Assembly: GCA_900551005.1 (NCBI GenBank)
Contig: URUL01000001.1
Location: 246 to 64,245 of the forward strand
DNA: 64,000 nucleotides
Source of the DNA: an uncultured Ruminococcus sp.
GTDB lineage: Bacteria; Bacillota; Clostridia; Oscillospirales; CAG-272
Direction of reading: 5' to 3'
Shown: piece after piece, positions 2,687-49,377 of the stretch
Position numbering within the stretch: the stretch's first letter is position 1
Layout of the letters: each line of letters begins with the position of its first letter
The notes under the pieces: generated by a model
The model's database searches: none
The model's input: the letters and a program-made list of their open reading frames with translations, nothing else
Told to the model about the DNA's origin: nothing
Translations under genes and position numbers: made by a program

Positions 2687-3956
2687 GATTATCTTCCTCC
2701 GTCGCTTTCCTTTCGTGAATTCGTTTGATCACTGCCCCGAGAGCCGTAATGACCGGAACGCTGACCGCATTACCTGCCATCTTATAGAGCCTTGCATCGG
2801 ATATTCCTGCTGATTGGGCTTTCAAAAACTGCTCGTCGGTAAATCCCTGCAAACGCCAGCACTCAATGGGCATGAGCTTGCGGATGCGGTCCTGCTCGGC
2901 AATCCCGTGTAGGTCTTGGGTTGTGAGTGTAAACATCGGTTCTTCCGGGTCTTTCATCCTTCTGCCTTGCTGACGAACGGTTTCCCGCTCAGGATTCAGA
3001 AAAGCGCACGGGCCATCTCCCGCCTTTTCCAAGACTCCGGAATGCTCACCCCGGCGGTTGCCGATCCCCGAATCCTGTCTTGCCGTAATGCAACGGGCAA
3101 GCTCTGTGATCTTGGGTTCAGGATTCATATCGATACAATAGACTCCCTGTGTACTGCTCGTAGTCAGCGTGTGGGCGATCTGTTTGCCGACACGTCCTCG
3201 TCTTGAATTGAGATTGGGATATGCCAGGTCAATACTGTCACCGGGTTCGGCCATCTGAAAGCCGGACTTGGTGAAGGATTTGATGGGAAGTTGTCCAACC
3301 GAATACAAGCCGGTGTTCCCGGCAAAACCTCCGGCACTGCTTGTCAGTGTACAGCTCAGTCCTTCTTGTCCGTAGATTCTGTCACCTTGTCTGCCGCCGA
3401 TCTTTTGAATAATAGTTTTTGGATTTGAATCGGTGAAAGATAATATCTCTCCGGGGCATTCTTCTCCAAGACAGCAGACAAGAAACACTCTTTTTCGGGA
3501 TTGGGGAACACCGAAATCTGCGCTGTTAAGAACCTGCCATGCGACATCGTACCCCAGTTCCGAAAGCGTACCGAGGATGGTCGCAAACGTCCTGCCGCTG
3601 TCGTGAGATAGCAGTCCGGGAACGTTTTCAAGGAGCAGATACTTAGGTCTTTTAACTCTGGCAATCCGAGCGATCTCAAAGAAAAGCGTTCCTCGGGCAT
3701 CTTCAAAGCCCCCTCGCTTTCCAGCGATTGAAAAGCTCTGACAAGGGAATCCGCCGCAAATAAGGTCGATATCCGGCAATTCTTCGGGGACGATCTTTCT
3801 TGCGTCTTCAAAAAATAGTTCTCCTTTCGTGTCATAGATTGCTTCATAGGCTTTCCGTGCGTAAGGATCGATCTCGCAAAAACCTACGGGGACAAAAAAA
3901 TCGCCGAACTTGGAGAGTCCTGATCTGAACCCACCAATGCCGGCGAACATGTCCAA
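2664..3956 (-). CDS. dcm: DNA cytosine-5 methyltransferase, orphan
   Basis: Canonical m5C motifs in order: I MFAGIGGF, IV GGFPCQSFS, VI ENVPGL, VIII QSRKRVF, X GNAVSVPV. A long variable (target-recognition) region lies between VIII and X. Confidence 0.9.
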   Translation of the reverse strand: MDMFAGIGGFRSGLSKFGDFFVPVGFCEIDPYARKAYEAIYDTKGELFFEDARKIVPEELPDIDLICGGFPCQSFSIAGKRGGFEDARGTLFFEIARIARVKRPKYLLLENVPGLLSHDSGRTFATILGTLSELGYDVAWQVLNSADFGVPQSRKRVFLVCCLGEECPGEILSFTDSNPKTIIQKIGGRQGDRIYGQEGLSCTLTSSAGGFAGNTGLYSVGQLPIKSFTKSGFQMAEPGDSIDLAYPNLNSRRGRVGKQIAHTLTTSSTQGVYCIDMNPEPKITELARCITARQDSGIGNRRGEHSGVLEKAGDGPCAFLNPERETVRQQGRRMKDPEEPMFTLTTQDLHGIAEQDRIRKLMPIECWRLQGFTDEQFLKAQSAGISDARLYKMAGNAVSVPVITALGAVIKRIHERKATEEDNHAEPCNQ

Positions 3957-3976
3957 ATATTTGATTTGATTATTAT

Positions 3977-4744
3977 TCAGAGGCTCATACCTCCGTTCTG
4001 CTCAAACGACTGTCCAGTAGCGGAGGAGATGATATCCCAAATGTCTTCGGGACAATCTGCCATATCTACGTGGATATCGCTCTCACAATTTACTGTGTAC
4101 CAGTATCGGTACGGTACCAGATTCTGCATGAAGGCTTTTTGGTCTTCTGTTTCTTCCGTTACACCGTGATCGATTACGCCTGTCGGTGTCATAACGCACG
4201 TACCCCAATGTTCTCCGGAGGAGTCCAAGTCAAGGGTTACAAGCGCAGGATAGTAGTCGCCTGTCTGCAGGGATTCTACGATGGCAGGTACTTGGATGAA
4301 ACCGACGAGACCATCGACACTGTCTGTGTCATAAATCTCAACGAACTTGTCGTGAAGCTGCCCCAAAATCTCGGTGGTGTAGCTGTCATTCGCATTCTCG
4401 ATTTCCTCGGCGAAGCGGTCAAGGTCTACATCCGCAAAGATATCTCGGTGAACGGCCTCGTAATACTTGTCGTAATTCCGTGCGCACTTTTCTTCGAGAA
4501 GCTCGGCTTGCGTTAAGGCTCTGTAATGATCCTCTCCGTATGCCAAACCGAGGCTTCTGCCGTTATCGAACCTGCAGAAGACGGTAGCAATGTCATCGAT
4601 TCCCTCAACCGTGCCTTTGGTTCCGGGCGGAATCGGACGTGGATCATCTCCCATACTGATGAGTTTGATGCGAGTGCCTATGGGATAGCGTTCTCGCAAG
4701 CTCTTTGCGATGTTGCTCAATTGGCTGAAGGAATATTCCATCAC
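3977..4744 (-). CDS. DUF4314-like domain protein (conjugative-element associated)
   Basis: 255-aa ORF. The N-terminal IGTRIKLISMGDDPRPIPPGTKGTVEGIDDIATVFCRFDNGRSLGL matches my recollection of the DUF4314 SH3-like module. The stop overlaps the next start (ATGA-type junction at 4741-4744). Confidence 0.6.
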   Translation of the reverse strand: MMEYSFSQLSNIAKSLRERYPIGTRIKLISMGDDPRPIPPGTKGTVEGIDDIATVFCRFDNGRSLGLAYGEDHYRALTQAELLEEKCARNYDKYYEAVHRDIFADVDLDRFAEEIENANDSYTTEILGQLHDKFVEIYDTDSVDGLVGFIQVPAIVESLQTGDYYPALVTLDLDSSGEHWGTCVMTPTGVIDHGVTEETEDQKAFMQNLVPYRYWYTVNCESDIHVDMADCPEDIWDIISSATGQSFEQNGGMSL

Positions 4745-5154
4745 ATACCTCCCATTTCCATGCCGCTATCAAAGCGATAGCCTTGGTCGGCATACATGGA
4801 GATATAGTCCTCAACCGTATCGGAGATAAGTTTGTAGTCATAAGCGGTCGGATGATAGATATACCAGTCAACTTTTTGACCGTCTTCCCAAATATGGGGT
4901 TCACGGTCACCCTTCATGCCGATGATATCGGAAAATTTGAAGGTTTCGCTGTCAACCGTACCTTCGTGGCGGTTGATGATGGTGAGTCGCAAGGCATCAT
5001 ACTTTGCGTGGGTATTCGTGTAGACGAATTGTACCTTGGCTCTTAAATCTTCACCGATGGGAGCAATCATTGTCTTACCTGCGAAAACCGCATCCTCCGA
5101 AATACATTCAGAATCGTCAAAGAGCCTGTGAAGCTCTTTTTCAAAAAAAGTCAA
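4741..5154 (-). CDS. Hypothetical protein (ICE cargo)
   Basis: ORF 4741..5274 trimmed to the TTG at 5154, which follows AAAGGAG (reverse complement of 5161-5170) and avoids a ~100-nt overlap with the upstream gene. The C-terminus is ...SGMEMGGM. Confidence 0.6.
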   Translation of the reverse strand: MTFFEKELHRLFDDSECISEDAVFAGKTMIAPIGEDLRAKVQFVYTNTHAKYDALRLTIINRHEGTVDSETFKFSDIIGMKGDREPHIWEDGQKVDWYIYHPTAYDYKLISDTVEDYISMYADQGYRFDSGMEMGGM

Positions 5155-5176
5155 TAATATGATCTCCTTTCTTCTC

Positions 5177-5443
5177 TTAATACAAATAACGGTCTTCAAA
5201 GCCTTCGCTTTTTCGAAGTTCTGCCATGAGCTCATCTCTGAATCGCATATCTGTGCATTCGTCGATCTCACCATTTTCGAATTCCAAAAGCGTAGTGCCG
5301 TCTGCTTCTGCGATATAACCGCAGTGTTGTGTATGAATGAAGTCAGCCACTTCTTTCATACTGTGGAGTTGTATGCCCTCGTCATAGAGTCCGATATGAC
5401 CGAGGAGCATGTCGTAATACATTTCTGTCACGCTCACCCCCAA
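5177..5443 (-). CDS. Hypothetical small protein (ICE cargo)
   Basis: 88-aa ORF in the same operon-like array. Its start overlaps the stop of the upstream ORF by 10 nt. No recognisable motif. Confidence 0.5.
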   Translation of the reverse strand: MGVSVTEMYYDMLLGHIGLYDEGIQLHSMKEVADFIHTQHCGYIAEADGTTLLEFENGEIDECTDMRFRDELMAELRKSEGFEDRYLY

Positions 5444-5778
5444 TCCATCCCGAAAAGTTCATCGGGAGAATAACTGCAGGTGAAGTCAACAGATTCAATG
5501 TGGTCGCAGTGACCGGAGAGGAACTTCTCGTCCTTCTGCATTCGGAGCAGGAAGTATGCCACTTCCTCGATGGATGCCTTGAATGTTTCACCTTCGCCGT
5601 AAAGATAGGCTTCAGCGTGTACGGTGATCTCGGTGTCTTCCTCAATGCTGTCGATGAAATCTTCGAACTTGGTGTAGTAATCGAAGTCTTCGAGCTCTCT
5701 CGGAATACCGCTGACGAGGAACTCCGCTTCGTTGCCATCGGGAGTTGAAACACGAACGTGGGAGAATAGAAGAGCCAT
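5434..5778 (-). CDS. Hypothetical protein (ICE cargo)
   Basis: 114-aa acidic ORF. Its ATG shares one nucleotide with the stop of the upstream gene at 5778. No recognisable motif. Confidence 0.55.
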   Translation of the reverse strand: MALLFSHVRVSTPDGNEAEFLVSGIPRELEDFDYYTKFEDFIDSIEEDTEITVHAEAYLYGEGETFKASIEEVAYFLLRMQKDEKFLSGHCDHIESVDFTCSYSPDELFGMDWG

Positions 5779-6650
5779 TACATCCCACCCATCGTCATGC
5801 CGTCCGACATGAGGCGATCCTCGAACTCGTCTTGGTTATCGATGAAATAATTATCATCGGGACTCCAAAGGCTCACGTACATGAAAGCACCCCGGTGTCC
5901 ACCCTCGAAGTAGATCTCTCTCTGCTCGAATCCTTCGCCAAGGCCGTCCGAGTTCTGTCCGGAGATCCAACTCTTCAGATCCTGTTCCTCGTCCTCTGTG
6001 AGGGGGCCTGCGGTCTGTACGGTGATGCATCCGTAAAGCTCGCCGTTTCTACGCTCGAAGCCCCATTCGGCTGACCGTAGCTTTTCGGACACACCATTGT
6101 TTCCATCGAAGTATTCAGCCATGTTGTTTTCATCAATGCTGTTATACTCCGCCAAACGCTGACGGATGACATCCTCATGTCGAGCTGCGAAGGTTGCATC
6201 TTCCTCGTAGCCGTCCTCATCAACTTCGCCCCAACTATTTGTTCCGTGAACCTGAATGGTAAGGGGACAATAGTATTTGGTTGTAACCGATTGAGGATAG
6301 GCTTCGGAAAGCATTCTGTCGAGTTGCTCATAGGAGGCAAGTCCTTCGACCTTGACGGTGTTCTCAAACTCTCGTCTGTTCTGATAGGGGAGGCTGTGCA
6401 TCAGAGCGATCGTGTCATTGAACGTGTGAAAGCGGAAGCCTGTGGGGATTGCTTTGGCGATGGCATTTTCTACAACACCACGGCAGTCGAGCGTGAACGA
6501 GAGACCTTGGTCGGATTCTTCATTGTATTTGATGTCGTAAGCACTTGCGTGATTTTTACCCAAATACGAGAGAGCACCTGCCAACTGTTTTCGATCTACT
6601 GGAAGCTGAACATGGGCTGTGTAGTCGCCGTTTGAAATAATTGCATTCAT
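5778..6650 (-). CDS. Hypothetical protein (ICE cargo), first gene of the visible array
   Basis: 290-aa ORF with the RBS AGAAAGGA 8 nt upstream of the ATG at 6650. The C-terminus is ...SDGMTMGGM. No family assigned with confidence. Confidence 0.65.
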   Translation of the reverse strand: MNAIISNGDYTAHVQLPVDRKQLAGALSYLGKNHASAYDIKYNEESDQGLSFTLDCRGVVENAIAKAIPTGFRFHTFNDTIALMHSLPYQNRREFENTVKVEGLASYEQLDRMLSEAYPQSVTTKYYCPLTIQVHGTNSWGEVDEDGYEEDATFAARHEDVIRQRLAEYNSIDENNMAEYFDGNNGVSEKLRSAEWGFERRNGELYGCITVQTAGPLTEDEEQDLKSWISGQNSDGLGEGFEQREIYFEGGHRGAFMYVSLWSPDDNYFIDNQDEFEDRLMSDGMTMGGM

Positions 6651-7133: not shown

Positions 7134-7209
7134 TGGCAGGGGCAGTAAGAATCGAACTCACGACACGCGGTTTTGGAGACCGCTGCTCTACCTGCTGAGC
7201 TATACCCCT
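7134..7209 (-). tRNA. trnW: tRNA-Trp (anticodon CCA), CCA end encoded
   Basis: The reverse complement folds as a cloverleaf: AGGGGTA-TA-GCTC-AGCAGGTA-GAGC-A-GCGGT-CTCCAAA-ACCGC-GTGTC-GTGAG-TTCGATT-CTTAC-TGCCCCT-G-CCA. The anticodon loop CTCCAAA gives CCA. Confidence 0.9.
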
Positions 7210-7335: not shown

Positions 7336-7412
7336 TGGTGGGCCTTTAGGGACTCGAACCCCAGACCAACCGGTTATGAGCCGGTTGCTCTAACCAACTG
7401 AGCTAAAGGCCC
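7336..7412 (-). tRNA. tRNA with CAT anticodon (elongator Met or lysidine-modified Ile2), CCA end encoded
   Basis: Reverse complement: GGGCCTT-TA-GCTC-AGTTGGTTA-GAGC-A-ACCGG-CTCATAA-CCGGT-TGGTC-TGGGG-TTCGAGT-CCCTA-AAGGCCC-A-CCA. It is not an initiator: there is no C1:A72 mismatch and no triple G-C in the anticodon stem. Its overall look resembles tRNA-Ile2(CAU), but Met and Ile2 cannot be separated by eye. Confidence 0.85.
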
Positions 7413-8167: not shown

Positions 8168-8518
8168 TCAGAAAAGACCGGGCATGCCACCGAGCCCGCC
8201 GAATGCTCCCGTTACCTTTTCCATTTCAGAATTTGCGGTATCTTCCACGCGCTTGATAGCCTCATTCACGCCTGCCACCAGTATATCGGAAAGCGTTTCC
8301 ATGTCATCGGGATCGACTATCTCCGGGTCTATTTTTATGGAAAGTATCTCTTTCCTTCCGTTTATTTTTATCTGAACGACGCCGCCACCCGCGGAAATAT
8401 CATATTCGCGTGTTTCAAGCTCCGCCTGCAATGCAGCCATATCCTCCTGCATTTTCTGCGCCTGCTTGAGCATCTGATTCATAGACGGTCCGCCGCCCCC
8501 GGGTACTCTTGCTTTCAT
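8168..8518 (-). CDS. ybaB: Nucleoid-associated protein YbaB/EbfC
   Basis: 116 aa with MLKQAQKMQEDMAALQAELE...GGGVVQIKINGRKEILSIKIDPE, the typical YbaB pattern. It sits in the conserved dnaX-ybaB-recR order. Confidence 0.9.
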   Translation of the reverse strand: MKARVPGGGGPSMNQMLKQAQKMQEDMAALQAELETREYDISAGGGVVQIKINGRKEILSIKIDPEIVDPDDMETLSDILVAGVNEAIKRVEDTANSEMEKVTGAFGGLGGMPGLF

Positions 8519-10137
8519 ATCGATTCTTCCTTTCCGAATTCTTCAAATTTTTTTATCAGTTCTTCCATCGGCTCGCCGAGCATATCTTCCGCTTTTTCCT
8601 GCTCTACGCAAAGTATTTTTTCCACGTGATATGTTTTTCCCGTTACTTCCTGTATCACGGCGCCGATATCACTCTTGCGCTTATCATTCATCAAGCTGAT
8701 GCCGAACGGCTTATCAAAAACAATGTACAGATATCCGTCGCCTTCAAGAGCTGCGGACCCGCGTATAAACGAACCGAGAGCCATATCGACTGAGGCTATA
8801 CGCTTTACGACATCGCCCCAGCGGCGCAGGGGGACTTTGCCCGTAGCCGACGCGGGCGAAGGTGCAGAGATCTGCTCCGCTCCGTTTGCCTTGCTTGTCA
8901 TCCCGGCTGAGCTGTCTGCATCCGCTTTTGCCGCATGCGAGCCGTCTGAAACCGGCTTTTCGGCTGTCCGCACGGCGGCAGGCTCTGCTGCCTTGACAGG
9001 TGCTTCTCTTCTCTGCTGTATCCGAGCGACATTTTTTTGATCATGTGAAGCATCGCGTGCCTCCGCCATGACGGAATCGGGTTCGCATGCGCGTATCAGC
9101 GCCATCTCGGCATATATCTTTGCCGAGGCAGGTATTTTCTGCATATTGCTTTCCGCCTCTATAAACATATCCAGTATGCGGAATAGCGAAGCCGCATCAT
9201 AATATTCCGCATATCCGACAGCAGGCCTATCCTTGCCCGCCTTGCCGCGTGAACAGATATATACAAGCATATCGCGCAAAAAAGCGATAAGCTCGCGCCA
9301 GAAAACCGATATATCGCGCGATGAATTGTATATCTCATCGGTAATTTCGAGTGCCTTTGCCGCATCTCCCTCCGATATGGCAAGACATATCCTGCCGAGT
9401 AACTCGGATGAAGCCGCTCCAAGCATGGAGGAAGCGGATTCAAGCGTTATTTTGCCGCCCGTACCTGAGCAATATTCGAGCATATTCAAAGCATCGCGGA
9501 CAGCTCCCTGCGAAAGCCCGGCTATGAGCTTCAGCGCCTCGCCGTCTGCTTCTATTCCCTCGCCCGCGCAGACCTTTTCCATTCGCCTTACCATATCATC
9601 GGGCGAAACGCGGCGAAAATCAAACCGCTGGCATCTTGAGAGCACCGTCGCGGGAATTTTATGCAGTTCCGTAGTCGCCAGTATGAAAATAACATGCTCC
9701 GGCGGCTCCTCGAGCGTTTTCAGCAGTGCGTTGAAGGCGGAGATGGAGAGCATATGCACCTCGTCGATGATATAAACGCGATACTTCAGCTCCGCGGGCG
9801 TATATACCACGGCATCGCGGATATCTCGGATATCGTCTACGCCGTTGTTGCTCGCCGCATCCATTTCGATGACGTCGGTACAATTGCCGCTGTCGATACT
9901 GTGACAGGCGGCGCACTTGCCGCATGGGTCTCCATTCACCGGGGAAAGACAGTTTGCCGCCTTGGCTATGATCTTGGCACAGGTCGTCTTGCCTGTTCCG
10001 CGCGGCCCGCAGAAAAGATAAGCATGCGAAATCTTACCTGCCTGCACCTCGCTTTTCAGCACAGACGTTATGTGGTCCTGCCCGACGACATCCTCGAAAA
10101 CCGCGGGGCGCCATTTTCTGTAGAGCGCCTGATACAT
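8515..10137 (-). CDS. dnaX: DNA polymerase III subunits gamma/tau
   Basis: The homologous N-terminus MYQALYRKWRPAVFEDVVGQDH starts at the ATG at 10137, preceded by GGAGGGAAGG. It has Walker A GPRGTGKTT, a zinc module CLSPVNGDPCGKCAAC and the box IIDEVHMLS. The ORF-track start at 10269 would overlap the SRP RNA. Confidence 0.92.
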   Translation of the reverse strand: MYQALYRKWRPAVFEDVVGQDHITSVLKSEVQAGKISHAYLFCGPRGTGKTTCAKIIAKAANCLSPVNGDPCGKCAACHSIDSGNCTDVIEMDAASNNGVDDIRDIRDAVVYTPAELKYRVYIIDEVHMLSISAFNALLKTLEEPPEHVIFILATTELHKIPATVLSRCQRFDFRRVSPDDMVRRMEKVCAGEGIEADGEALKLIAGLSQGAVRDALNMLEYCSGTGGKITLESASSMLGAASSELLGRICLAISEGDAAKALEITDEIYNSSRDISVFWRELIAFLRDMLVYICSRGKAGKDRPAVGYAEYYDAASLFRILDMFIEAESNMQKIPASAKIYAEMALIRACEPDSVMAEARDASHDQKNVARIQQRREAPVKAAEPAAVRTAEKPVSDGSHAAKADADSSAGMTSKANGAEQISAPSPASATGKVPLRRWGDVVKRIASVDMALGSFIRGSAALEGDGYLYIVFDKPFGISLMNDKRKSDIGAVIQEVTGKTYHVEKILCVEQEKAEDMLGEPMEELIKKFEEFGKEESI

Positions 10138-10178
10138 GTTCCTTCCCTCCCGAATAAATGCAAAGCGAGATATAAAAA

Positions 10179-10454
10179 CAGACCATACACCGAAAACTCG
10201 AAATGAACTTCCATGCGCTTTCCGCAGTCTCCGCTCGGAGCAGGCAACCCCACGGCACACCGGTGGCACTGCTTAATGCTGCTTGATTCCTCACCTGACA
10301 TGATTCACAGCTACCGATTGCGCGGGACCCACCCGTCATCGCGAAGATTATGCGGTGCAGACCACACAAATCCACCCCTCATAATCGGAAACCATCCCTG
10401 CTGTAGCGGATTGCAGGTACAGGGCACCGCTAATTCCCCGACCGGTATGGTCTG
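10179..10454 (-). ncRNA. ffs: Signal recognition particle RNA, large (Bacillus/Clostridium-type, with Alu domain)
   Basis: The minus strand reads ...GGGGAATTAGCGGTGCCCTGTACCTGCAATCCGCTACAGCAGGG (Alu domain) ... GGGTCCCGCGCAATCGGTAGCTGTGAATCATGTCAGGTGAGGAATCAAGCAGCATTAAGCAGTGCCACCGGTGTGCCGTGGGGTTGCCTGCTCCGAGCGGAG. This matches the conserved helix 8 GTCAGGTnnGGAAnnAAGCAGC pattern. The 5' CAGACCATACCGG pairs with the 3' CGGTGTATGGTCTG, followed by TTTTT. The position upstream of dnaX is canonical. The ends are accurate to about +/-5 nt. Confidence 0.9.
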
Positions 10455-10567: not shown

Positions 10568-10596
10568 TTGACAACAGCTGATTGCCGTATTATAAT
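10568..10596 (+). promoter_or_regulatory. Sigma-70-type promoter for the ileS leader
   Basis: TTGACA (10568-10573), a 17-nt spacer, then TATAAT (10591-10596). Confidence 0.6.
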
Positions 10597-10603: not shown

Positions 10604-10858
10604 GTTATATACCTGCAAATACGCTGATGGAGAGAGTAGCATCCGCGGGAAAGCACAAAGCGAGCCGAAGACGGTGAGAGTTCGGTTGCAAGTAGCCCTA
10701 TGTGAAGATCACTCCGGAGTATCGCGGCAGAAAGGAGCTTTTCCGATTAAGCCTGCGACGGCATCCCACCGTAATACGGGAAGCATATGCCTTTGTATGC
10801 GAACGGGTGGTTAAGCGACGCCTATGGCGCCGTCCCGATTGCGGACGGTGCCTTTTTT
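10604..10858 (+). promoter_or_regulatory. T-box riboswitch leader with an Ile (AUC) specifier, ending in an intrinsic terminator
   Basis: Stem I elements: TGATGGAGAGAGTA (K-turn/AGAGA region) and a GGTGAGAG distal motif. The specifier-loop context is GTGAAG-ATC-A (ATC at 10708-10710). The T-box-like sequence is AACGGGTGGTTAAGCG (10802-10817). The terminator is GGCGCCGTCC...GGACGGTGCC followed by TTTTTT (10826-10858). It lies directly upstream of ileS. Confidence 0.75.
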
Positions 10859-10904: not shown

Positions 10905-13900
10905 ATGTACGAAAAAGTGCCCGCGAATCTGAATTTCGTGGAGAGAGAAAAAAAGATCGAGCAGTTCTGGCGCGATAATAAGATATTCGAAAAGAGTATC
11001 GAGGCGCGCGAGGGCTGTCCGGATTATACATTCTATGACGGACCCCCTACGGCAAACGGAAAGCCGCATATAGGGCACGTTCTCACGCGCGTCATCAAGG
11101 ATATGATTCCCCGCTATCAGACCATGAAGGGGAAAAAGGTTCTGCGCAAGGCAGGCTGGGATACGCACGGACTGCCGGTTGAGCTTGAGGTGGAAAAGTT
11201 GCTCGGGCTCGACGGCAAGGACCAGATAGAAAAATACGGCATAGAGCCCTTCATCAAGAAATGCCGCGAGAGCGTATGGAAATACAAAGGTATGTGGGAG
11301 GATTTCTCCGGCAAAGTGGGCTTCTGGGCCGATATGGAGCATCCCTACATCACCTATACGGATGAATATATCGAATCCGAATGGTGGGCACTTCGTCAGA
11401 TCTGGGACAAAGGTCTGCTCTATAAGGGCTTTAAGATCGTCCCCTATTGTCCCCGCTGCGGTACGCCCCTTTCCAGCGCCGAGGTGGCACAGGGCTAAAA
11501 GGACGTAAAGGCACGCTCCGCCGTCGTCCGTTTCAAGGTCGTCGGAGAGGATGCCTATTTCCTCGCATGGACGACAACGCCGTGGACACTTCCGTCAAAC
11601 GTTGCGCTCTGCGTAAATCCGAATGAGACATACGCCAAGGTAAAGGCGGCAGACGGCTGCACATATTACATGGCAAAAGCTCTGCTTGACACGGTTCTCG
11701 GCAAGCTCGGCCAAGAAGGCTCTCCCGCCTATGAGATTCTCGCGGAATACAGCGGCAGGGAGCTTGAATACAGGGAATACGAACCGCTCTTTGACTTTGC
11801 ACTCGATATCATAGCAAAGCAGGGCAAAAAGGCATACTTCGTCACATGCGACACTTATGTAACTCTCACCGACGGTACCGGTATCGTTCATATCGCTCCC
11901 GCCTTCGGTGAAGATGACGCGAGAGTCGGTAAAGAATATGATCTTCCCTTCGTTCAGCTTGTGGACGGCAAGGGAGAGATGACGAAGGAGACCTCCTATG
12001 CGGGCTTATTCGTCAAGAAAGCCGACCCGCTCGTTCTCAAAGATCTCGAAAAGAAGGGGCTGCTCTTTGACGCGCCGAAGTTTGAGCACAGCTATCCGCA
12101 CTGCTGGAGATGCGATACTCCGCTTATCTACTATGCGAGAGAATCATGGTATATCCGTGAAAGCGCCGTCAAGGAGGATCTGCTCCGCAATAACGCCACG
12201 ATCAACTGGATACCCGAATCCATAGGCACGGGCAGATTCGGAAACTGGCTGGAAAACATTCAGGACTGGGCTATCTCGCGTAACCGCTACTGGGGCGCAC
12301 CACTCAATATATGGGAATGCGATTGCGGTCACCGTCACTGCGTCGGCAGCCGTGAAGAGCTATATGAGATGAGCGGTGACGAACGCGCAAAGACAGTTGA
12401 GCTGCACCGCCCGTATATCGACGGAATAACGATCAAATGTCCGAAATGCGGCAAGCCGATGAAGCGCGTACCCGAGGTTCTCGACTGCTGGTTTGACTCG
12501 GGAGCGATGCCCTTCGCGCAGTATCACTATCCTTTTGAAAACAAGGAGCTCTTCCTGAGCCACTTCCCCGCTCAGTTCATTTCCGAAGCGGTGGACCAAA
12601 CCCGCGGCTGGTTCCATTCTCTTCTCGCCGTTTCGACGCTCGTTTTCAATAAAGCGCCTTATGAAAACGTCATCGTTCTCGGACATGTTCAGGATGAAAA
12701 CGGTCAGAAGATGTCAAAATCCAAGGGCAATGCAGTGGATCCCTTCGATGCGCTTGCAAAGCACGGTGCCGATGCCATACGCTGGTATTTCTATTCCAAC
12801 AGCGCTCCGTGGCTCCCGAATAAATTCCATGACGCGGCTGTTACCGAGGGTCAGCGCAAATTCATGGGCACGCTTTGGAATACCTATGCTTTCTTTGTCC
12901 TCTATGCAAATATCGACGATTTCGATGCGACGAAGTATACGCTTGATTATGACAAGCTTTCCGTCATGGACAAATGGGTGCTCTCAAAGCTGAATTCGCT
13001 CATACAAGAAGTTGACGGCGACCTCGAAAATTACCGCATAACGGAAACGGCGCGCGCCCTCTCGGATTTTGCGGATCAGCTCTCGAATTGGTACGTCCGC
13101 CGCTCGCGTGAGCGCTTCTGGGTAAGCGATATGACCGAGGACAAAATAAACGCCTATATGACGCTTTACACGGTCCTCGTAACATTCTGCAAGCTCGCCG
13201 CTCCGATGATTCCGTTCATGACGGAGGATATATATCAGAATCTCGTCCGCAGTATAGACAAGACCGCGCCCGAGAGCATCCATCTCTGCGATTTTCCCGT
13301 GGCAAATGAAGCATATATCGACTCCGAGCTGGAAGAGAGAATGGATGAGGTACTCGACATCGTCGTTCTCGGCAGAGCATGCAGAAACAGCGCCTCCATC
13401 AAAAACCGCCAGCCGATAGGTGCCATGTATGTCAAGGCGGAAAAGGAGCTTCCCGAATATTTCGTCTGCGTGATCGCAGATGAGCTCAATGTCAAGAAGG
13501 TCGAATTTGTTTCCGACGCGGCCTCCTTCACAAGCTATTCGTTCAAGCCCCAGCTTCGCACGGTAGGTCCGAGATACGGCAAATATCTCGGCAAAATCAG
13601 AACAATGCTCGCGGAGATAGACGGAAATGCCGCCATGAATGAGCTTAAACAAACGGGCAAGCTGAAGCTTGATCTCGGAGATACGACTGCCGAGCTGTCC
13701 GAAGACGACCTGCTTATAGAATCCGCTCAGATACCGGGCTTTGAGGCTCTCTCGGATAACAATGTTACCGTCGCTCTCGATACGAATCTCACGCCGGAGC
13801 TGATAGAAGAAGGCTTTGTACGCGAGATAGTAAGCAAGATCCAGACCATGCGCAAAGATTCCGGTTTTGAGGTAATGGATAATATCAATATCTATTGCTC

Positions 13901-14063
13901 CGGCAATGAGAAGATAGCCGGAATCATCGAGCGCAATGCGGACTTCATAAAGAGCGAGACGCTTGCAAAGGATATCGTATTCGGAAGCGAAACACATTTT
14001 TCAAAGAACTGGAATATCAACGGCGAAGATGTGATCCTCGGCGTTGAAAAAATAAATAAATAG
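10905..14063 (+). pseudogene. ileS: Isoleucine--tRNA ligase (type 2), single reading frame interrupted by an in-frame TAA at 11496-11498
   Basis: ORFs 10905..11498 and 11670..14063 are in the same frame, and the intervening 11499-11669 is open and homologous (KDVKARSAVVRFKVVGEDAYFLAWTTTPWTLPSNVALCVNPNETYAKV). It has the HIGH motif (PHIGH) and KMSKS (GQKMSKSKGN). The stop replaces the residue in the conserved ...EVAQG-Y-KDV... context. As written the gene is broken, but a sequencing error is possible. Confidence 0.9.
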
Positions 14064-14818: not shown

Positions 14819-16429
14819 ATGAAAAAAGCACTGTCTCTCTTCCTTGCGGCAGCGATGCTGGTACTTGTACTGCTTCTTGCCGCATGCGGAGGACAACCGG
14901 AAACAACGACAACAATAACAACAAGCACAAATTCTACAGAAACCACCTCTTCCTTCGACGGCACGACTGCCTCTAAGGAAGATACAGGCACATCCGGCGG
15001 CACAACAGCGACCTCAACGTCAGCTTCCGGAACAACTGCATCCGGCGGCTCTGCAGAGCTGACCGGTAAGGAAAAGCATCCCGACTTCATGGATGTAAAC
15101 TTCGGAGGAAAGACCTTCAACTTTGTTACGCAAAAAGGCTGGAGCGGCGGCTGGGACACATATGAGATATGCGCGGAAGCCACCGGACAAGACGATCTTA
15201 TCACGGAAGCCGTAATAAGCAGAAATTCCGTAGTTGAAGACCTCTACAACTGCAAGATAAGCGAAACCAAAAGCGATGACCCTCTGAACCTTGTGAACAA
15301 CGATATTGCTCTCGGTACCAATAATTACGATTTTGTCATGAGACTCGTTTATATTGTCCCTTCCTCATGCATGAATATCGCAAATCTTGATATAGATCTC
15401 AGCCACAGCTGGTGGAATCAGGATTATATCGATGCCTTCAGCTTCGATTACAACGGCAAAAAGGTACTTCACTCGATTTCGGGCAAATTCAATCTCATTA
15501 TGTACGATTCAATAAACACGCTCTTCGTGGATATGGACGTATATGACCGCGCCATTGCTTCCGGCAAGACAAATATCGACCTTTATCAGACCGTCAAGGA
15601 CGGAAAATGGACAGTTGAAAAAATGCTTGAGCTCATGGATGCGGCGAAAGTCGATGTAAACGGCGACTCTCAGCTGAATTTTGATGACGGCGATATCTTC
15701 GGATTCCTTGCACATAAAAATTCCCACTCCGAATCTGCATTCTTCTATTCAACGGGAATCAAGACCGTTATGAAGGATGACAACAACCAGTATGTCAGCA
15801 TCAATGCTTCCAATACCGACATGGCTTATGTAAGCAAGGTTATAGATGAAGCAGCCAAAGTATATCAAAGCCCTGGTTTCGGCTCTATAGGTGAGCTCAA
15901 CAGCGTAAAGGCACTGGCAAACGGTCAGTCGCTCTTCAGCGCGCAGTGGATGATAAGACTTCATTCCAACCACGAATTTGTAAACTACGGCATAGATTTC
16001 AGCGAAAAGCGCATCTCTGTCGTTCCCTATCCGAAATTTGATGAGAATCAGGAGGATTATCATTCCTACATCTTCAGCCGCGGCTATGGACTTCAGGTTT
16101 CCAAGGCTATCACCGACCATGCGGCGGCAGCTCAGTTCCTCGAGGTATTCGGTTATCACTCCGAAAAGCTTCTCTACCCCGAATATATCAAGTGCATCAA
16201 GACCCAGTGCCTCTGCGATGAAGGCGCGGGCGAAATGCTTGAGATTGTTCTCCAATCCGCCTTTGTTGATTACGGTCACTACAATCCAGATGTCGGCATA
16301 ATGGGACGCATAAGCAGCATGATTTCAAGCGGCAAAAACAATATCTCCAAGGCTATCTCCTCCGCAAGTCAGGCGGCAGATGGTGTTCTTGCCACATATA
16401 TGCAGGATTCCTACGATAGGATGAACTGA
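14819..16429 (+). CDS. Lipoprotein, extracellular solute-binding-protein-like (paralog 1 of 3)
   Basis: Signal peptide plus lipobox MKKALSLFLAAAMLVLVLLLAAC-GG, a Thr/Ser-rich linker, then a ~430-aa domain. Its pattern (FGGKTFNF..W..YEI.AEATG.D.ITEA...RNSVVE.LYNCKI ... DLYQTVKDGKWT) resembles the large family-1-type ABC substrate-binding lipoproteins of Clostridia. Start set at the ATG at 14819 after GGGGGA. Confidence 0.85.
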   Translation: MKKALSLFLAAAMLVLVLLLAACGGQPETTTTITTSTNSTETTSSFDGTTASKEDTGTSGGTTATSTSASGTTASGGSAELTGKEKHPDFMDVNFGGKTFNFVTQKGWSGGWDTYEICAEATGQDDLITEAVISRNSVVEDLYNCKISETKSDDPLNLVNNDIALGTNNYDFVMRLVYIVPSSCMNIANLDIDLSHSWWNQDYIDAFSFDYNGKKVLHSISGKFNLIMYDSINTLFVDMDVYDRAIASGKTNIDLYQTVKDGKWTVEKMLELMDAAKVDVNGDSQLNFDDGDIFGFLAHKNSHSESAFFYSTGIKTVMKDDNNQYVSINASNTDMAYVSKVIDEAAKVYQSPGFGSIGELNSVKALANGQSLFSAQWMIRLHSNHEFVNYGIDFSEKRISVVPYPKFDENQEDYHSYIFSRGYGLQVSKAITDHAAAAQFLEVFGYHSEKLLYPEYIKCIKTQCLCDEGAGEMLEIVLQSAFVDYGHYNPDVGIMGRISSMISSGKNNISKAISSASQAADGVLATYMQDSYDRMN

Positions 16430-16518
16430 TTTTTTCTAATCACGCCCCCACAAACATCCGAAAATATTTTGATTTTTTCAAAGTATTTAAATATATATTA
16501 TAAAAGGGAGAAACCACT

Positions 16519-18129
16519 ATGAAAAAAGCGCTGTCTCTCTTCCTTGCGGTAGCGATGCTGGTACTTGTACTGCTTCTTGCCGCATGCGGAGGACAACCGG
16601 AAACAACGACAACAATAACAACAAGCACAAATTCTACAGAAACCACCTCTTCCTTCGACGGCACGACTGCCTCTAAGGAAGATACAGGCACATCCGGCGG
16701 CACAACAGCGACCTCAACGTCAGCTTCCGGAACAACTGCATCCGGCGGCTCTGCAGAGCTGACCGGTAAGGAAAAGCATCCCGACTTCATGGATGTAAAC
16801 TTCGGAGGAAAGACCTTCAACTTTGCCGTCTCCAAAGGTTGGAGCGGCGGCTGGGACTGCTATGAGATCTATGCCGAAGCCACAGGCAATGATAACCTGA
16901 TAACAGAAGCGATCGTAAACCGAAATTCTGTTGTCGAGAGCCTTTACAATTGCAAGATAAGAGATACAAAGACGGACAATCCCGCCGGTCTTATCAGCAA
17001 CGATATTGCTCTCGGTACCAATAACTACGATTTTCTCATGCAGCTTTGGTACAACGTATTGGATGGCATGATGAATATAGCAAACCTCGATATAGATACT
17101 TCCCACAGCTGGTGGAATCAGGACTATATAGAGGCGATGAGCTTCAACTATAACGGTACCAAGATGATCCATTCCCTCTCCGGCAAATTCAACCTCATCA
17201 TGTACGATTCGATCGTATCGCTCTTCGTCGATATGGACTTATATGACCGTTTGGTAGCCGCAGGCAAAACGAATATCGACCTTTATCAGACCGTCAAGGA
17301 CGGCAAATGGACGATCGATACCATGATCACGCTCATGGAACTCGCCACGACCGATACAAACGGCGACCAGCAGATCACCTTCGAGGGCGGAGACATTTTC
17401 GGCTATGCCGCTCATCCGAACATACTGGCACAGTATGGCTTCATTTACGGTGCAGGTATTAAAACCGTCACGAAAGACGAAAGCGGTGCCTATATATGCA
17501 TGAGCCCTGCGACTACCGATGTAACTTTCATCAGCAATGTCATCGATAAAGCTGCGTCCATATATAAGAGCTCCGGCTACAGCAACATAGGCGAGCTGAA
17601 CAGCGTAAAGGCCATAGCAAACGGTCAGTCGCTCTTCAATGTTCAGTGGATGATAAGACTCCATTCGACAGAGGAACTGATAAACTATGGCGTGGACTTC
17701 GGAGAAAAGCGTATCTCCGTTCTGCCCTTCCCGAAATACGAGGAGTCGCAGGAAGACTATGGCACCTTCATCTCGAACAGAGGCTACGGTCTGCGCGTAT
17801 CCAAATCCATAAAGGATCCGAAGGCTATTTCCCAGTTCCTCGAGGTATTCGGCTATCATTCCGAGATGCTTCTCTACCCCGAATATATCAAGTGCATTAA
17901 GACGCAGTGCCTCTGCGATGAAGGCGCGGGCGAGATGCTCGAGATCGTTTTGGATTCCGTCTGCTGTGACTTCGGCATATGGAATGCAAGCACGGGAATC
18001 ATCAACCGAATGGGCGAAATGGTAGTAAGCGGCAAAAACAATTTCTCGAAAGCCCTCGCTTCCGTATCAAAATCAGGTCAGAATATTCTCGATGAAACAA
18101 TGAAGAATACATACGAGAAAATGAACTGA
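16519..18129 (+). CDS. Lipoprotein, extracellular solute-binding-protein-like (paralog 2 of 3)
   Basis: Same architecture as paralog 1. The first ~307 nt are nearly identical to paralog 1 and the remainder is diverged. Confidence 0.85.
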   Translation: MKKALSLFLAVAMLVLVLLLAACGGQPETTTTITTSTNSTETTSSFDGTTASKEDTGTSGGTTATSTSASGTTASGGSAELTGKEKHPDFMDVNFGGKTFNFAVSKGWSGGWDCYEIYAEATGNDNLITEAIVNRNSVVESLYNCKIRDTKTDNPAGLISNDIALGTNNYDFLMQLWYNVLDGMMNIANLDIDTSHSWWNQDYIEAMSFNYNGTKMIHSLSGKFNLIMYDSIVSLFVDMDLYDRLVAAGKTNIDLYQTVKDGKWTIDTMITLMELATTDTNGDQQITFEGGDIFGYAAHPNILAQYGFIYGAGIKTVTKDESGAYICMSPATTDVTFISNVIDKAASIYKSSGYSNIGELNSVKAIANGQSLFNVQWMIRLHSTEELINYGVDFGEKRISVLPFPKYEESQEDYGTFISNRGYGLRVSKSIKDPKAISQFLEVFGYHSEMLLYPEYIKCIKTQCLCDEGAGEMLEIVLDSVCCDFGIWNASTGIINRMGEMVVSGKNNFSKALASVSKSGQNILDETMKNTYEKMN

Positions 18130-18233
18130 CGACGGTCAAAAACGAATTTTTCTCTTCACACCCCCACCCAAAAATCGGAATTATTTTGATCTTTCAAAAT
18201 ATTCAAATATTGCATATGTGAAAGGAAAAAAAC

Positions 18234-19859
18234 ATGAAAAAAGTATTGTCTTTTCTCCTCGCGGTAACGATGCTGGCAGTAACTCTGCTGCTTGCCGCCT
18301 GCGGAGGAGAAAATAAACCCGAAATCACCACGACAACCAGTTCAAAAACCACAGAAGCCACATCATCTGCGACAACGGAAAAGCAGGATGTGACAACGAC
18401 CGACTCCGGCAGTACGACTGCCTCGACACAAGCGACCGATACTTCCGAGACGAGCATCACAAGCAGCTCTTCTCAGACAACCGTCCTTACAGGCAAGGAA
18501 AAGCACCCCGACTTCATGGATGTAAACTTCGGCGGAAAGACATTTAACTTTGTCGTTTCCAAGGGTTGGAGCGGCGGTTGGGATTGCTATGAGATCTATG
18601 CCGAAGCCACAGGCAACGACGATATCATCACAGAGGCGATCATCAACCGAAACTCTGTTGTGGAAAGCCTCTATAACTGCAAGATCAGACATACACAAGC
18701 AGAATATCCCCATCAGCTTGTTGCCAATGATGTTGCACTCGGAACGTCTACCTACGATTTTCATATGCAGCTTTTCTATACCTCTTCAGCCAACGGCATT
18801 AATATAGCAAGCCTTGATATAGACCTTTCGCACAGCTGGTGGAATCAGGAATATATCAATGCGTTCGGTTATACATATAATGGCACGAAGATTCTACCTT
18901 CCATCTCGGGTAAATTTAACCTCATCATGTATGACTCCATCGCGACTATGTTTGCCGATATGGATGTTTACGATCGTGCGGTAGCCTCCGGCAAAACAAA
19001 TATCGACCTCTATCAGACCGTCAAGGACGGCAAATGGACGATCGATACCATGATCGCTCTGATGGAAGCGGCAAAAGTCGATGTAAACGGCGACCAGCAA
19101 CTCAAATTTGAAGACGGAGATATCTTCGGCTTCCTTTCGAACGCAAATGTACTCCCTCAGTACGGCTTCATTTATGGTTCCGGGCTCAAATCCGTCATCA
19201 AAAATGAAAACGACGCTTTCGAAAGCCTGAATACGACCAATACGGACATTTCTTATGTAAGCAGTGTTATCGATAAGGCAGCAACGGTATTCAAGAGCTC
19301 TGCTTACGGTCAGATAGGTGAGCTGAACAGCGTAAAGGCTGTGGCAAACGGTCAGGCGCTCTTTAATGTTCAATGGATCATCAGATTACATTCAAAAGAA
19401 GAGCTCATCAATTACGGTATCGACTTCAGCGAAAAGCGTCTCTCCGTTATCCCCTTCCCGAAATACAGTGAGGATCAGGAAGAATACGGTACCTTTATCT
19501 GCAACCGCGGCTACGGACTCATTGTTCCCAAGACGATAACCGATGCCAAGGCTATTTCTCAGTTCCTCGAGGTATTCGGATATCATTCCGAAATGCTCCT
19601 CTATCCCGAATATATCAAGTGCATCAAGACACAGTGCCTCTGCGATGAGGAAGCAGGCGAGATGCTCGAGATAGTGCTCAAATCCGCACGCTGTGACTAC
19701 GGTGTCTGGAATTTAAATACAGGTCTCGCCGGCAGAATGGGTGAAATGATAGCAAGCGGAAAGAACAACTTCTCCAAAGCTGTCGCTTCCGCATCCAAGA
19801 CTTGCCAGCAGGTTCTTGATTCGGTAATGAAGGATATTTACGATCGATCTGTCAACTGA
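18234..19859 (+). CDS. Lipoprotein, extracellular solute-binding-protein-like (paralog 3 of 3)
   Basis: Lipobox LLLAAC-GG, a different Thr/Ser linker, and a mature domain closest to paralog 2. Confidence 0.85.
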   Translation: MKKVLSFLLAVTMLAVTLLLAACGGENKPEITTTTSSKTTEATSSATTEKQDVTTTDSGSTTASTQATDTSETSITSSSSQTTVLTGKEKHPDFMDVNFGGKTFNFVVSKGWSGGWDCYEIYAEATGNDDIITEAIINRNSVVESLYNCKIRHTQAEYPHQLVANDVALGTSTYDFHMQLFYTSSANGINIASLDIDLSHSWWNQEYINAFGYTYNGTKILPSISGKFNLIMYDSIATMFADMDVYDRAVASGKTNIDLYQTVKDGKWTIDTMIALMEAAKVDVNGDQQLKFEDGDIFGFLSNANVLPQYGFIYGSGLKSVIKNENDAFESLNTTNTDISYVSSVIDKAATVFKSSAYGQIGELNSVKAVANGQALFNVQWIIRLHSKEELINYGIDFSEKRLSVIPFPKYSEDQEEYGTFICNRGYGLIVPKTITDAKAISQFLEVFGYHSEMLLYPEYIKCIKTQCLCDEEAGEMLEIVLKSARCDYGVWNLNTGLAGRMGEMIASGKNNFSKAVASASKTCQQVLDSVMKDIYDRSVN

Positions 19860-26189: not shown

Positions 26190-27263
26190 TTACATATTAT
26201 CGGCAAAAATATCGCGAAGTATTTCATCCCGGCATGATTCAACAGCAGAAAAATCGATATTTTCTCCGTATATCGCCTCAAGCGCCGCATGCGCACGATA
26301 AACGCCCGCGAGATTTTCCTCTGCCGCCTGCATCAGGCAGTCATAGCATCTTCCCGAAAATTTCAGCTTGCGACGCATGGCGGAAAGCTTTCCTTTGTCC
26401 GCAAATCTGAGAACATTTATATTCTTCTCGCTGAGCTTCAGCTTTTCCTCATCGCGGCATATGCAGAAAAGCGTATCCGCTTCCTTTATGTATACTGCCT
26501 CGAGCCTGTCATGGCGAAGCGGAGAGGGGCATTTTATGAGAGCGATGCCCAGACTCTCACAAAGCTCGCAGAAGGTCGTGAGAAAATATCCTCCGAGCCC
26601 GTACTTATCGGAAACGGTATATACCGTCCCCGCCGCTTTTTCCAGTGTTTGCAGATGGACCGCGCCGGACGTGCCGATGGCATCGACATATCGCTCCTCT
26701 GTTCTTCCCGCCTTTCCCGAGGGAAGCTTCATCGCGCGGAGCAGACGGCGTTGTGCTCCTGCCGCTTTCTCAGCGCAGTAAGCCGCCCGCGCGCTTTCCT
26801 CCATCTCGCGGTGCACCTTGCCCGCCGCCGAGAGAAAACGGTATGCCGTGCGGTAAAGCTCGGCATTTTCCGTAGCGAGAGCGATGATCTCATCACGGCG
26901 GCTGCGGAGCGCACAAACGTCAAAAGCGCCGTACAGACTGACTATGACCTCACTTGCTCACGGGTATTTCGGGTCTGTCATATGCGGTGCCGTCCCGTCT
27001 ATCACGGCACACGAAAGCTCCGGTATCACCACACCGTCAAGAGATGCGGTATCCGAAGAGCAATAATAAAGCTCGGCGGAATATCCCCTTCCCTTCGCAT
27101 ACGAGGCTATCTGCTTCATAAGAGTCGATTTTCCGGTACCCGGTCCCCCTTTTATGATGAATATTTTTTCGAGCGAGAGTGGAGAGAAAACGCTTTCGAA
27201 TATGCTGTAAAAACCGTTTTCCGTATTTGCCGCCGCAAAAAATTCAAGTGCTTCGGACTTCAT
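26190..27263 (-). pseudogene. Uncharacterised P-loop NTPase, single frame interrupted by an in-frame TGA at 26958-26960
   Basis: ORFs 26958..27263 and 26190..26816 are in the same frame. The segment between them is open (ASEVIVSLYGAFDVCALRSRRDEIIALATENAELYRTAYRFLSAAGKVHRE). It has Walker A GGPGTGKST. The context of the stop is ...HMTDPKYP-*-ASEVIV. Confidence 0.75.
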
Positions 27264-37838: not shown

Positions 37839-38258
37839 GTGTTTCTGGGTGAGTATGCACATACCGTCGATGCCAAGGGCAGGATCTTCATCCCCGCAAA
37901 GTACCGTGAAGAGCTCGGTACAAAATTTGTTATAACAAAAGGAACGGATAAATGCCTTTCCGTTTATCCTATGGAATACTGGAATTCCTATGTAGCCAAA
38001 ATAGAAGCGCTTCCTACGGCTCAGGCGGCGAAAATACGCAGATTCGTTTTCGCTCAGGCTTGTGATGTGGAGCAGGACTCTCAGGGGCGTGCGCTTCTCT
38101 CTCAGAGCCTGCGCGATTATGCGGGAATAAGCGACAGTGCCGTTGTCATAGGACTGGGCTCCTATCTCGAAATATGGTCTGCCGAAAACTGGAGCGCGGC
38201 TTCCACGGGCGAAGATGCCAAGGAAGTTGAAGAGCTCATGATAGAGCTGGGCTTCTGA
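37839..38258 (+). CDS. mraZ: Transcriptional regulator MraZ
   Basis: MFLGEYAHTVDAKGRIFIPAKYREEL, and a second SpoVT/AbrB-like repeat with DSQGRALLSQSLRDYA. GTG start after AGAAGGAGG. Confidence 0.95.
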   Translation: MFLGEYAHTVDAKGRIFIPAKYREELGTKFVITKGTDKCLSVYPMEYWNSYVAKIEALPTAQAAKIRRFVFAQACDVEQDSQGRALLSQSLRDYAGISDSAVVIGLGSYLEIWSAENWSAASTGEDAKEVEELMIELGF

Positions 38259-38259
38259 T

Positions 38260-39213
38260 ATGGATGAGATAAAATTTTCGCATTACTCCGTTATGCTCGG
38301 AGAATGCATAGATATACTGGGTATCAAGCCGTGCGGCACATATGTTGACTGTACGCTCGGCGGCGGCGGTCATTCGCTCGAGATAGCGAAAAGACTGACA
38401 GGCGGCAGGCTCATCTGCATCGATACCGATGAATGTGCCATCGATTCGGCAAAGAAACGTCTTTCCGATTACAGCGACAGGATAACATATGTTCACGGGA
38501 ACTTTTCCGATGTATCGCAGATATTGCAAGAGCTTTCCGTTGATGCCATAGACGGCGCGATCATAGACCTCGGCGTATCGTCATACCAGCTCGATACCCC
38601 CGAGCGCGGCTTCTCGTATAATACGGATGCGCCGCTCGACATGCGCATGAATGCCGAGGGACCTCCCGAAAATGCAAAAAGCGCCTATACTGTTGTCAAT
38701 ACATACAGCGAAAGTGAATTGCGGCGCATTCTCTTCGAATACGGAGAAGAAAATTTCGCCCCGAAAATAGCCTCCGCCATCGTCAAGGCACGAGAGAATG
38801 CTCCCGTAAAAACGACACTCGAGCTTGTCGAAATCATCAAAAGCGTCATGCCGAAAAAGGCGCTTGCCGTCGGTCATCATCCGGCAAAAAGAACCTTTCA
38901 GGCAATAAGAATAGAGGTAAATAACGAGCTTGCTATCATAGAGCCGACACTTCGTGCTCTGATATACGCCATGAAAAGCGGCGGTGTGCTTGCCGTATTG
39001 ACCTTCCATTCGCTTGAAGACAGGATAGTGAAAAAAACCTTTGCGGAGCTGGCACAGGGCTGTACCTGCCCGCCGTCCTTCCCTGTCTGCATATGCAATA
39101 ATAAACCGAAAATAGAGATACTCACAAAGAAACCCCTGCTTCCCTCGGAAGAGGAGCTGGCAGAAAACAACCGCTCTCACAGCGCCAAGCTGCGCGCAGC
39201 AAGAAAAATATAA
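38260..39213 (+). CDS. rsmH: 16S rRNA (cytosine1402-N4)-methyltransferase RsmH
   Basis: HYSVMLGECID...YVDCTLGGGGHS...DLGVSSYQLD...RGFSY...HSLEDRIVK. Confidence 0.95.
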   Translation: MDEIKFSHYSVMLGECIDILGIKPCGTYVDCTLGGGGHSLEIAKRLTGGRLICIDTDECAIDSAKKRLSDYSDRITYVHGNFSDVSQILQELSVDAIDGAIIDLGVSSYQLDTPERGFSYNTDAPLDMRMNAEGPPENAKSAYTVVNTYSESELRRILFEYGEENFAPKIASAIVKARENAPVKTTLELVEIIKSVMPKKALAVGHHPAKRTFQAIRIEVNNELAIIEPTLRALIYAMKSGGVLAVLTFHSLEDRIVKKTFAELAQGCTCPPSFPVCICNNKPKIEILTKKPLLPSEEELAENNRSHSAKLRAARKI

Positions 39214-39243
39214 AAAAGCAAGTCTTTTTGGAAAGGAACAGTC

Positions 39244-39729
39244 ATGGAGAAGAAGAAAAACAAGTCCGGCAACATCGGCAGCTTCTTAAGAAAATATACG
39301 ACGGACGTATCGAGCGGCGGCGTGAAATACAGCACCGTCAAGACCGGTGAAAAGAAGAAATTTCCCATATATACGGCGGCATGTGCCATTCTGATTACGG
39401 CTATGCTCATGTTTATCGTTTTCTCTTTCGTTCAGGTGGCACAGCTTCGCTCGGATATAAATCGCATCAATTCCGATATCTCCGAAATGGAAAAAGAGAT
39501 AAGCTCACGCGAGCGCGATATCGATGCGAAATATAAGGATGTCGATTTTGAAGCCCGTGCCAGAGAGCTTGGCATGACAGACAGCAAATATCTGCAGTAT
39601 CTTCCGCGTGATACCGAAAATACGGTAAATATGGTCATATACGGAAATAAGGAAAGCGAAAAATCATCAGGCTCACTTCTCTCCGCTATAGGTCGCGGTT
39701 TTTCGAAGCTGATAGAATTTATGAATTAA
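39244..39729 (+). CDS. ftsL: FtsL-like cell-division protein (bitopic, coiled coil)
   Basis: 161 aa with a single TM (FPIYTAACAILITAMLMFIVFSFV) followed by a coiled coil (QLRSDINRINSDISEMEKEISSRERDID). The call rests on position between rsmH and the PBP. Sequence conservation in this family is low. Confidence 0.6.
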   Translation: MEKKKNKSGNIGSFLRKYTTDVSSGGVKYSTVKTGEKKKFPIYTAACAILITAMLMFIVFSFVQVAQLRSDINRINSDISEMEKEISSRERDIDAKYKDVDFEARARELGMTDSKYLQYLPRDTENTVNMVIYGNKESEKSSGSLLSAIGRGFSKLIEFMN

Positions 39730-39846
39730 ACGGAATAAATTTCCTCGGCGCAAATATAAATATTATAAGTACACAGCTTTGAGTGAGTGGGGAGAATATA
39801 AAATATGCTCTTTGCTCACTTTGTTTTAGAAGGATGGAGGGCGAAA

Positions 39847-42081: not shown

Positions 42082-42137
42082 GAAAAAAGGCGTAAAACGC
42101 GGACGTTGAAAATATAAATATTTTTGACGGAGGCGTT

Positions 42138-43586: not shown

Positions 43587-43588
43587 AA

Positions 43589-44983: not shown

Positions 44984-45033
44984 AATACGTTTGTATAAAA
45001 CAATAAAAAGCCGCATCGGCACGGAGAAACCAT

Positions 45034-46011: not shown

Positions 46012-46044
46012 TTTACGGCGCAAAATATATAGGGAGGTAACGGC

Positions 46045-47226: not shown

Positions 47227-47242
47227 TCATAAGGAGGCAAAA

Positions 47243-48382: not shown

Positions 48383-48414
48383 TCTTTATATTTCACAGAG
48401 TTCAGGAGTAAAAA

Positions 48415-49335: not shown

Positions 49336-49377
49336 AGAATCGTATATCTCTGATTAAAATCTAAGGAGGATTATAAA

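Follow-up and report, generated by a model that had tools for sequence, protein, structure and literature searches.

An in-frame TAA in the ileS gene of an uncultured Ruminococcus sp. is one of 17 assembly-private transversions and is probably a sequencing or assembly error

The ileS locus and its leader

The window, which is the whole 64 000 nt stretch of DNA that was analysed, contains an ileS gene preceded by a T-box-like leader and interrupted by one in-frame stop codon. The features at this locus are as follows.

10183–10450, reverse strand: bacterial large SRP RNA (RF01854, 167 bits), between dnaX and the ileS promoter
10568–10596, forward strand: sigma-70-type promoter of the ileS leader, TTGACA-17-TATAAT, agreeing with the consensus at 12 of 12 positions
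10615–10840, forward strand: T-box-like leader (RF00230, 67.5 bits, E = 1.4e-14, full model 1–219)
10826–10852, forward strand: terminator hairpin of the leader, then TTTTTT; 10-pair stem with 8 G-C pairs
10905–14063, forward strand: ileS reading frame, 1052 codons and a terminal TAA, with one interruption
11496–11498, forward strand: in-frame TAA at codon 198 of ileS; base 11498 is A, where every related assembly has T (TAT, Tyr)

GGGAGG stands ahead of the ATG that opens the ileS frame at 10905, and the frame closes with the TAA at 14061–14063. The TAA at 11496–11498 is the only internal stop and the base that follows it is A (TAAA). With this codon in place, the window copy is not an uninterrupted ileS coding sequence. 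A single frame runs through the ORFs at 10905–11498 and 11670–14063 and the intervening 171 nt, and an earlier note on this DNA, which had described one continuous ileS frame across both ORFs, is borne out by translation, the product of 1052 aa having the same length as the closest orthologues. No ATG, GTG or TTG was found in frame between 11499 and 11669, and the earliest in-frame start after the stop is at 11670, 57 codons further on.

The earlier note had also placed a T-box-like leader with a promoter and a terminator upstream of ileS, and the perfect promoter, the match to the full RF00230 model and the hairpin with its T-run all agree with this. As in the T-box leader RNAs of Firmicute aminoacyl-tRNA synthetase genes, the match extends over the whole model, the T-box sequence overlaps the terminator hairpin, and promoter and gene stand in the expected order around the leader. 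The window leader differs in that its covariance score falls below the Rfam gathering score of 93, so that it is not reported at the gathering threshold, and in that the putative AUC (Ile) specifier, located in GAAGAUCAC, was assigned by eye only. Further upstream, a GTG-started ORF at 8515–10269 overextends dnaX (called as 540 aa, 8515–10137) into the SRP RNA gene.

The enzyme and its relatives at codon 198

A protein search with the fused ileS frame returned thousands of full-length IleRS sequences. Members of the nearest cluster, 94% identical and also 1052 aa long, are named as the isoleucine--tRNA ligase of Candidatus Apopatosoma intestinale. Both class I signature motifs, HIGH (PHIGH) and KMSKS (GQKMSKSKGN), can be read in the window translation, and the DUF5915 C-terminal domain is present. 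The intact conspecific protein, which differs from the window frame at 5 aa, scored 976.8 bits against the ileS model TIGR00392, above the cutoff of 621.4. Among the partial matches of this protein, the strongest were to the MupA and MupB models (NF000257 and NF000258), at 1000.8 and 1021.7 bits against a cutoff of 1900. Judged by its sequence, the ileS product is a type 2-like IleRS and not a mupirocin-resistance determinant. This is in keeping with the earlier note, which had named it a type 2 enzyme: the TIGR00392 match, the partial matches to MupA and MupB and the DUF5915 domain all fit that class.

The nearest named relative, the Ca. Apopatosoma intestinale IleRS (CCZ20330.1), is likewise type 2 (eukaryote-like/MupA-like). 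It shares with the window frame the length of 1052 aa, 94% aa identity, the HIGH and KMSKS motifs and the domains tRNA-synt_1, Anticodon_1 and DUF5915, and the genes at its locus are in the same order (recR-ybaB-dnaX-(SRP RNA)-leader-ileS-mscL). The window copy differs in its TAA at Tyr198 and in four private missense changes, neither of which occurs in the conspecific copies. All relatives encode IleRS as a single chain of 1050–1052 aa. All 134 homologues compared have Tyr in column 198, and the TAA does stand at a conserved Tyr position, as had been proposed from the sequence of the window.

Conspecific contigs were recovered by exact-sequence look-up of the neighbouring MscL and RecR proteins. 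Their sources are pig-gut assemblies, the three assemblies S111–S113 with the label WUHA17 SAMN06233224, and an NCBI MAG, and the gene order recR-ybaB-dnaX-leader-ileS-mscL is common to all the contigs. The whole of ileS is covered by eight independent contigs (six pig-gut assemblies and scaffolds from S111 and S113; 99.2–99.95% nt identity), and all eight have TAT at codon 198 and encode an intact IleRS of 1052 aa. A ninth contig, from the NCBI MAG (GCA_016302335.1), also has TAT but ends before the ileS stop. Contigs of the congeneric Ca. Apopatosoma intestinale, with 87% nt identity, have TAT as well. The codon is thus one substitution away from TAY, as the earlier note had supposed, and since TAT is found in all conspecific contigs the T>A change at 11498 is private to the window record. 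Consistent with this, a count of the TAA form of the degenerate EVAQG_KDVK context in a metagenome contig collection gave 0 matches, and exact look-ups of both ileS fragments found no match in the protein and contig collection. When genome contigs were searched for related ileS loci, the best of the matches listed was 76% identical.

Substitutions private to the window assembly

The window was compared over positions 6631–63850 (57 kb) with the near-identical scaffold S111_103 and with sibling contigs, further sequence of both being fetched by exact look-up of PBP, GH3, TsaD and RecR. Around ileS, S111 scaffold_103 is the nearest contig, with 6 differences over 12,537 ungapped bases. Five of these are in ileS (Y198*, E203A, V/A269G, T273S and E473D), and all five are nonsynonymous, are transversions and are private to the window. 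Over the full span there are 17 window-private substitutions. Every one is a transversion, 16 of the 17 fall at ancestral A:T pairs, and neither a transition nor an indel was found among the private changes. The only other difference from S111 over the same span is a transition at 16796, a position that is polymorphic among other contigs. All 17 private substitutions alter a protein, 3 as premature stops and 14 as missense changes, and none is synonymous or intergenic. Besides the TAA at codon 198, the private stops and the groups of private missense changes are:

11512, forward strand: A>C, E203A in ileS, at a residue that is Glu in 134 of 134 homologues
11710–11721, forward strand: two transversions 11 bp apart in ileS, T/C>G at 11710 (V/A269G) and A>T at 11721 (T273S)
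12323, forward strand: A>T, E473D in ileS, at a residue that is Glu in 134 of 134 homologues
26958–26960, reverse strand: second premature stop, GGA>TGA (G102*), in the gene for a 357-aa PRK06851-like / nSTAND3 NTPase (26190–27263)
57508–57590, reverse strand: three transversions within 83 bp (H67Q, D56A and N40T) in a low-molecular-weight phosphatase gene
61200–61202, forward strand: third premature stop, TAT>TAA (Y149*), in the eda gene for KHG/KDPG aldolase (60756–61718)

The NTPase gene is uninterrupted in scaffold S111_103. Y149* splits eda into ORFs of 148 aa and 166 aa, and a further private change in the same gene, D161E, lies at 61238, 36 bp past the stop. Single private missense changes were found in NFACT (E526A), rsmD, mraY, ftsW, ftsQ and a dnaC-like gene. 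In total, 3 of the 46 mapped genes (ileS, the PRK06851-like NTPase gene and eda) contain a private premature stop. On two points these results depart from the earlier note. It had regarded the TAA as the only defect in ileS, with no sign of secondary decay, whereas four private missense transversions besides the stop are present in the gene (E203A, V/A269G, T273S and E473D). It had also treated the stop as a feature of ileS, and the stop instead belongs to a set of 17 private transversions spread over the window, in which two unrelated genes are truncated too. The products of mutated genes were not found elsewhere by exact look-up: 5 of 5 unmutated genes that were tried were found in other assemblies, against 0 of 3 mutated products. 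The look-up of NFACT gave no match, which its private E526A change accounts for.

Natural variation at the same loci has a different character. Among polymorphisms present in at least two contigs, transitions outnumber transversions by 2:1 (87 to 44), and about half are synonymous (64 synonymous, 58 missense and 9 intergenic). Under this natural spectrum the probability of finding no transition among 17 changes is 9e-9. Uniform random substitution in silico was considered as a source and is unlikely, the probability of 0 transitions in 17 then being 0.001. The private sites are also clustered, with five adjacent gaps of less than 100 bp (14, 11, 34, 48 and 36 bp; permutation P = 1.5e-5), and ileS, which makes up 5.5% of the compared sequence, contains 5 of the 17 changes (P = 0.002). 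No sequence motif shared by the 17 sites, either methylation-like or of the GGC type, was seen. Random A:T transversions would be expected to change a protein in about 72.5% of cases, and the observed 17 of 17 has a probability of about 0.004, or about 0.01 when clustering is allowed for. The protein-changing share of 100% is accounted for by neither random error nor neutral mutation.

The sibling assembly S113, which represents the same strain and is more fragmented and of low coverage, has a private set of 11 changes. All are transversions, of which 1 is intergenic, 3 are synonymous and 7 are missense. Two of these (11658 and 11681) are in ileS, between the private sites of the window, and five others, at 54112–54174, lie no more than 75 bp from a contig end and surround the window-private site at 54164. 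Since bursts of private transversions recur at shared hot spots when one strain is assembled independently, a technical cause is indicated.

Three of the genes with single private missense changes, mraY, ftsW and ftsQ, belong to a complete dcw cluster at 37839–50541 on the forward strand (mraZ-rsmH-(161 aa)-PBP-murE-murF-mraY-ftsW-murG-ftsQ-ftsZ), which is syntenic with the conspecific contigs.

Origin of the internal stop

We consider the TAA to be a base-calling or assembly error in the window record, one of 17 of the same kind, with a probability of roughly 80%. On this reading a T>A miscall or consensus error would have occurred at 11498, and the organism's own ileS would have TAT (Tyr198) and be intact and T-box-controlled. 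The earlier note had put forward an assembly or base-calling error as the leading mundane explanation, and the finding that the changes are private, consist only of transversions and are clustered supports it. The cause would be read-level error at thin coverage, and the restriction to transversions could be explained by single-channel miscalls on a two-channel Illumina chemistry. In such chemistry A gives both signals, C gives red, T gives green and G gives none, and a miscall in one channel produces a transversion while a transition requires errors in two channels. The near-identical WUHA17 SAMN06233224 contigs probably come from the PRJNA361402 cohort, though that link is a guess, and PRJNA361402 was sequenced on a NextSeq 500 (PMC9867701). 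That the window's own source was sequenced on a two-channel platform is likewise our guess.

The changes in the window resemble the consensus or base-calling stop errors known from draft genomes and MAGs in several ways. They are private to one assembly and clustered at the scale of a read length, their spectrum is unnatural, they strike unrelated genes with essential ones among them, and comparable private changes occur close to a contig end in the low-coverage sibling S113. The load is also implausible for a living clone, as 3 of 46 genes carry stops and missense changes fall in mraY, ftsW, ftsQ and the dnaC-like gene. They differ from such errors in that the error in the window is deduced from sequence and in that the number of silent or intergenic changes, zero among 17, is further from random expectation. 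This last point counts against an error, since random error does not predict that all 17 changes should alter a protein. A further point against it is that the window is contiguous over at least 64 kb, which usually goes with decent coverage, and about 3 consensus errors per 10 kb would then be high for Illumina data.

The same excess of protein-changing substitutions would suit a real nonsense mutation private to this strain, with ileS a young pseudogene in a heavily mutated lineage and a second IleRS encoded elsewhere. Such a lineage could be a mutator biased towards transversions, a culture that had been mutagenised or had passed through a bottleneck, or a minor subpopulation that the assembler picked up, and A:T>C:G changes are the classical signature of a mutT mutator. 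The four private missense changes beside the ileS stop, two of them at invariant residues, look like relaxed constraint, and the concentration of 5 of the 17 private changes in ileS, which is 5.5% of the compared sequence (P = 0.002), tends the same way. We nevertheless think a real mutation in any of these forms unlikely. The private changes include no transition, synonymous change or indel, unlike natural divergence at the same loci, and spacings of 11–48 bp suit reads more than replication errors. Mutation followed by drift does not yield a spectrum of transversions alone in which no change is silent. S113, assembled independently, has private transversions too, partly in the same hot spots. 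The damage extends to cell-division and replication genes (mraY, ftsW, ftsQ and the dnaC-like gene) and truncates two other genes, which extrapolates to hundreds of damaging changes genome-wide. The ileS promoter, T-box, terminator and ribosome binding site are untouched. A second ileS is absent from the 46 mapped genes of the window.

Two readings in which the stop is real and the enzyme is still made were also weighed. Under programmed recoding, a full-length IleRS would result from read-through of the UAA or from its decoding as Tyr, through either a suppressor tRNA or an altered code. The ileS frame is perfectly continuous with its downstream part intact, and both private TAA stops, in ileS and eda, stand at Tyr codons. 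However, no conspecific and none of the 134 homologues has the stop, UAAA is a strong context for termination, the window tRNAs are Trp(cca) and Met(cat) only, and the third private stop, a TGA at a Gly codon, would be beyond rescue by a Tyr ochre suppressor. The code is standard, since 19 of the 46 mapped genes end in TAA. Read-through or stop reassignment was rejected because the stop is not conserved and TAA is in normal use as a terminator, and recoding is accordingly very improbable. The earlier note had not favoured programmed read-through either, and TAT in all conspecifics, the UAAA context and the use of TAA at the ends of 19 of 46 genes uphold that view. The presence of two long ORFs in one frame could alternatively reflect a natural split gene, in which residues 1–197 and the C-terminal part form two polypeptides that assemble, like known split synthetases. 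A product reinitiated at 11670 would lack 57 residues, the conserved WTTTPWTLP among them, and every relative encodes a single chain of 1050–1052 aa. A natural split synthetase was rejected on the grounds that a conserved segment would be lost and no relative shares the split, and we find it scarcely credible.

It would be a very long shot for all 3 stops and 14 missense changes to be real and fixed in a living, heavily mutated lineage that survives thanks either to a second IleRS or to suppression of UAA, as by an ochre suppressor tRNA that inserts Tyr. If all the stops were real, this would be a natural gut bacterium that tolerates nonsense mutations in essential genes. Three other sources of the private changes were considered and rejected. 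Adenine mutagenesis of the DGR type does not fit, as both A and T of the coding strand are changed and many unrelated housekeeping genes are affected. In a recombination tract, most changes would be expected to be synonymous transitions. Positive selection on IleRS, such as an inhibitor might impose, is at odds with a gene that has a stop and with a signature that is window-wide.

If the TAA is a sequencing or assembly error, little is at stake biologically, as the species would have an ordinary intact ileS under T-box control. The consequences would lie in annotation. Roughly 3 bases per 10 kb of the record appear to be wrong, which would give rise to false pseudogenes (ileS, eda and the NTPase gene) and to false amino-acid variants in cell-division genes. 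Singletons of this assembly should not be trusted for pseudogene counts, completeness estimates, dN/dS or variant calls. A spectrum made up of transversions only, together with clustering at read length, offers a simple test of artefact against decay when reads are not at hand.

Beyond both ends of the compared span the window departs from its close relatives. To the left of 6631 it diverges abruptly from S111_103, and the S113 contig ends exactly at 6631. The divergence over 3549–6630 is about 3–10% with a natural, transition-rich spectrum, and the matching region of S111 encodes DUF4314, a DNA methylase, DUF3846, SpoVG, three DUF6133 proteins and a prepilin peptidase. This segment lies beside tRNA-Trp (7134–7209) and tRNA-Met (7336–7412) genes and looks like a variable mobile element integrated next to them. 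At the right end, the identity with contigs of S111 and S113 drops sharply from 63854 (63854–64000); one indel and numerous mixed substitutions fall within 80 bp, which indicates a structural difference or a strain-variable junction.

Downstream of ileS, at 14819–19859 on the forward strand, are three tandem paralogues of 536, 536 and 541 aa that have a lipoprotein-type signal (LAAC) and no confident Pfam domain and are 84% and 77% identical to one another in nucleotide sequence. Copies 1 and 2 have polymorphisms that match at 14955/16655 and at 14999/16699, which is suggestive of gene conversion, or of cross-talk in assembly, between the two.
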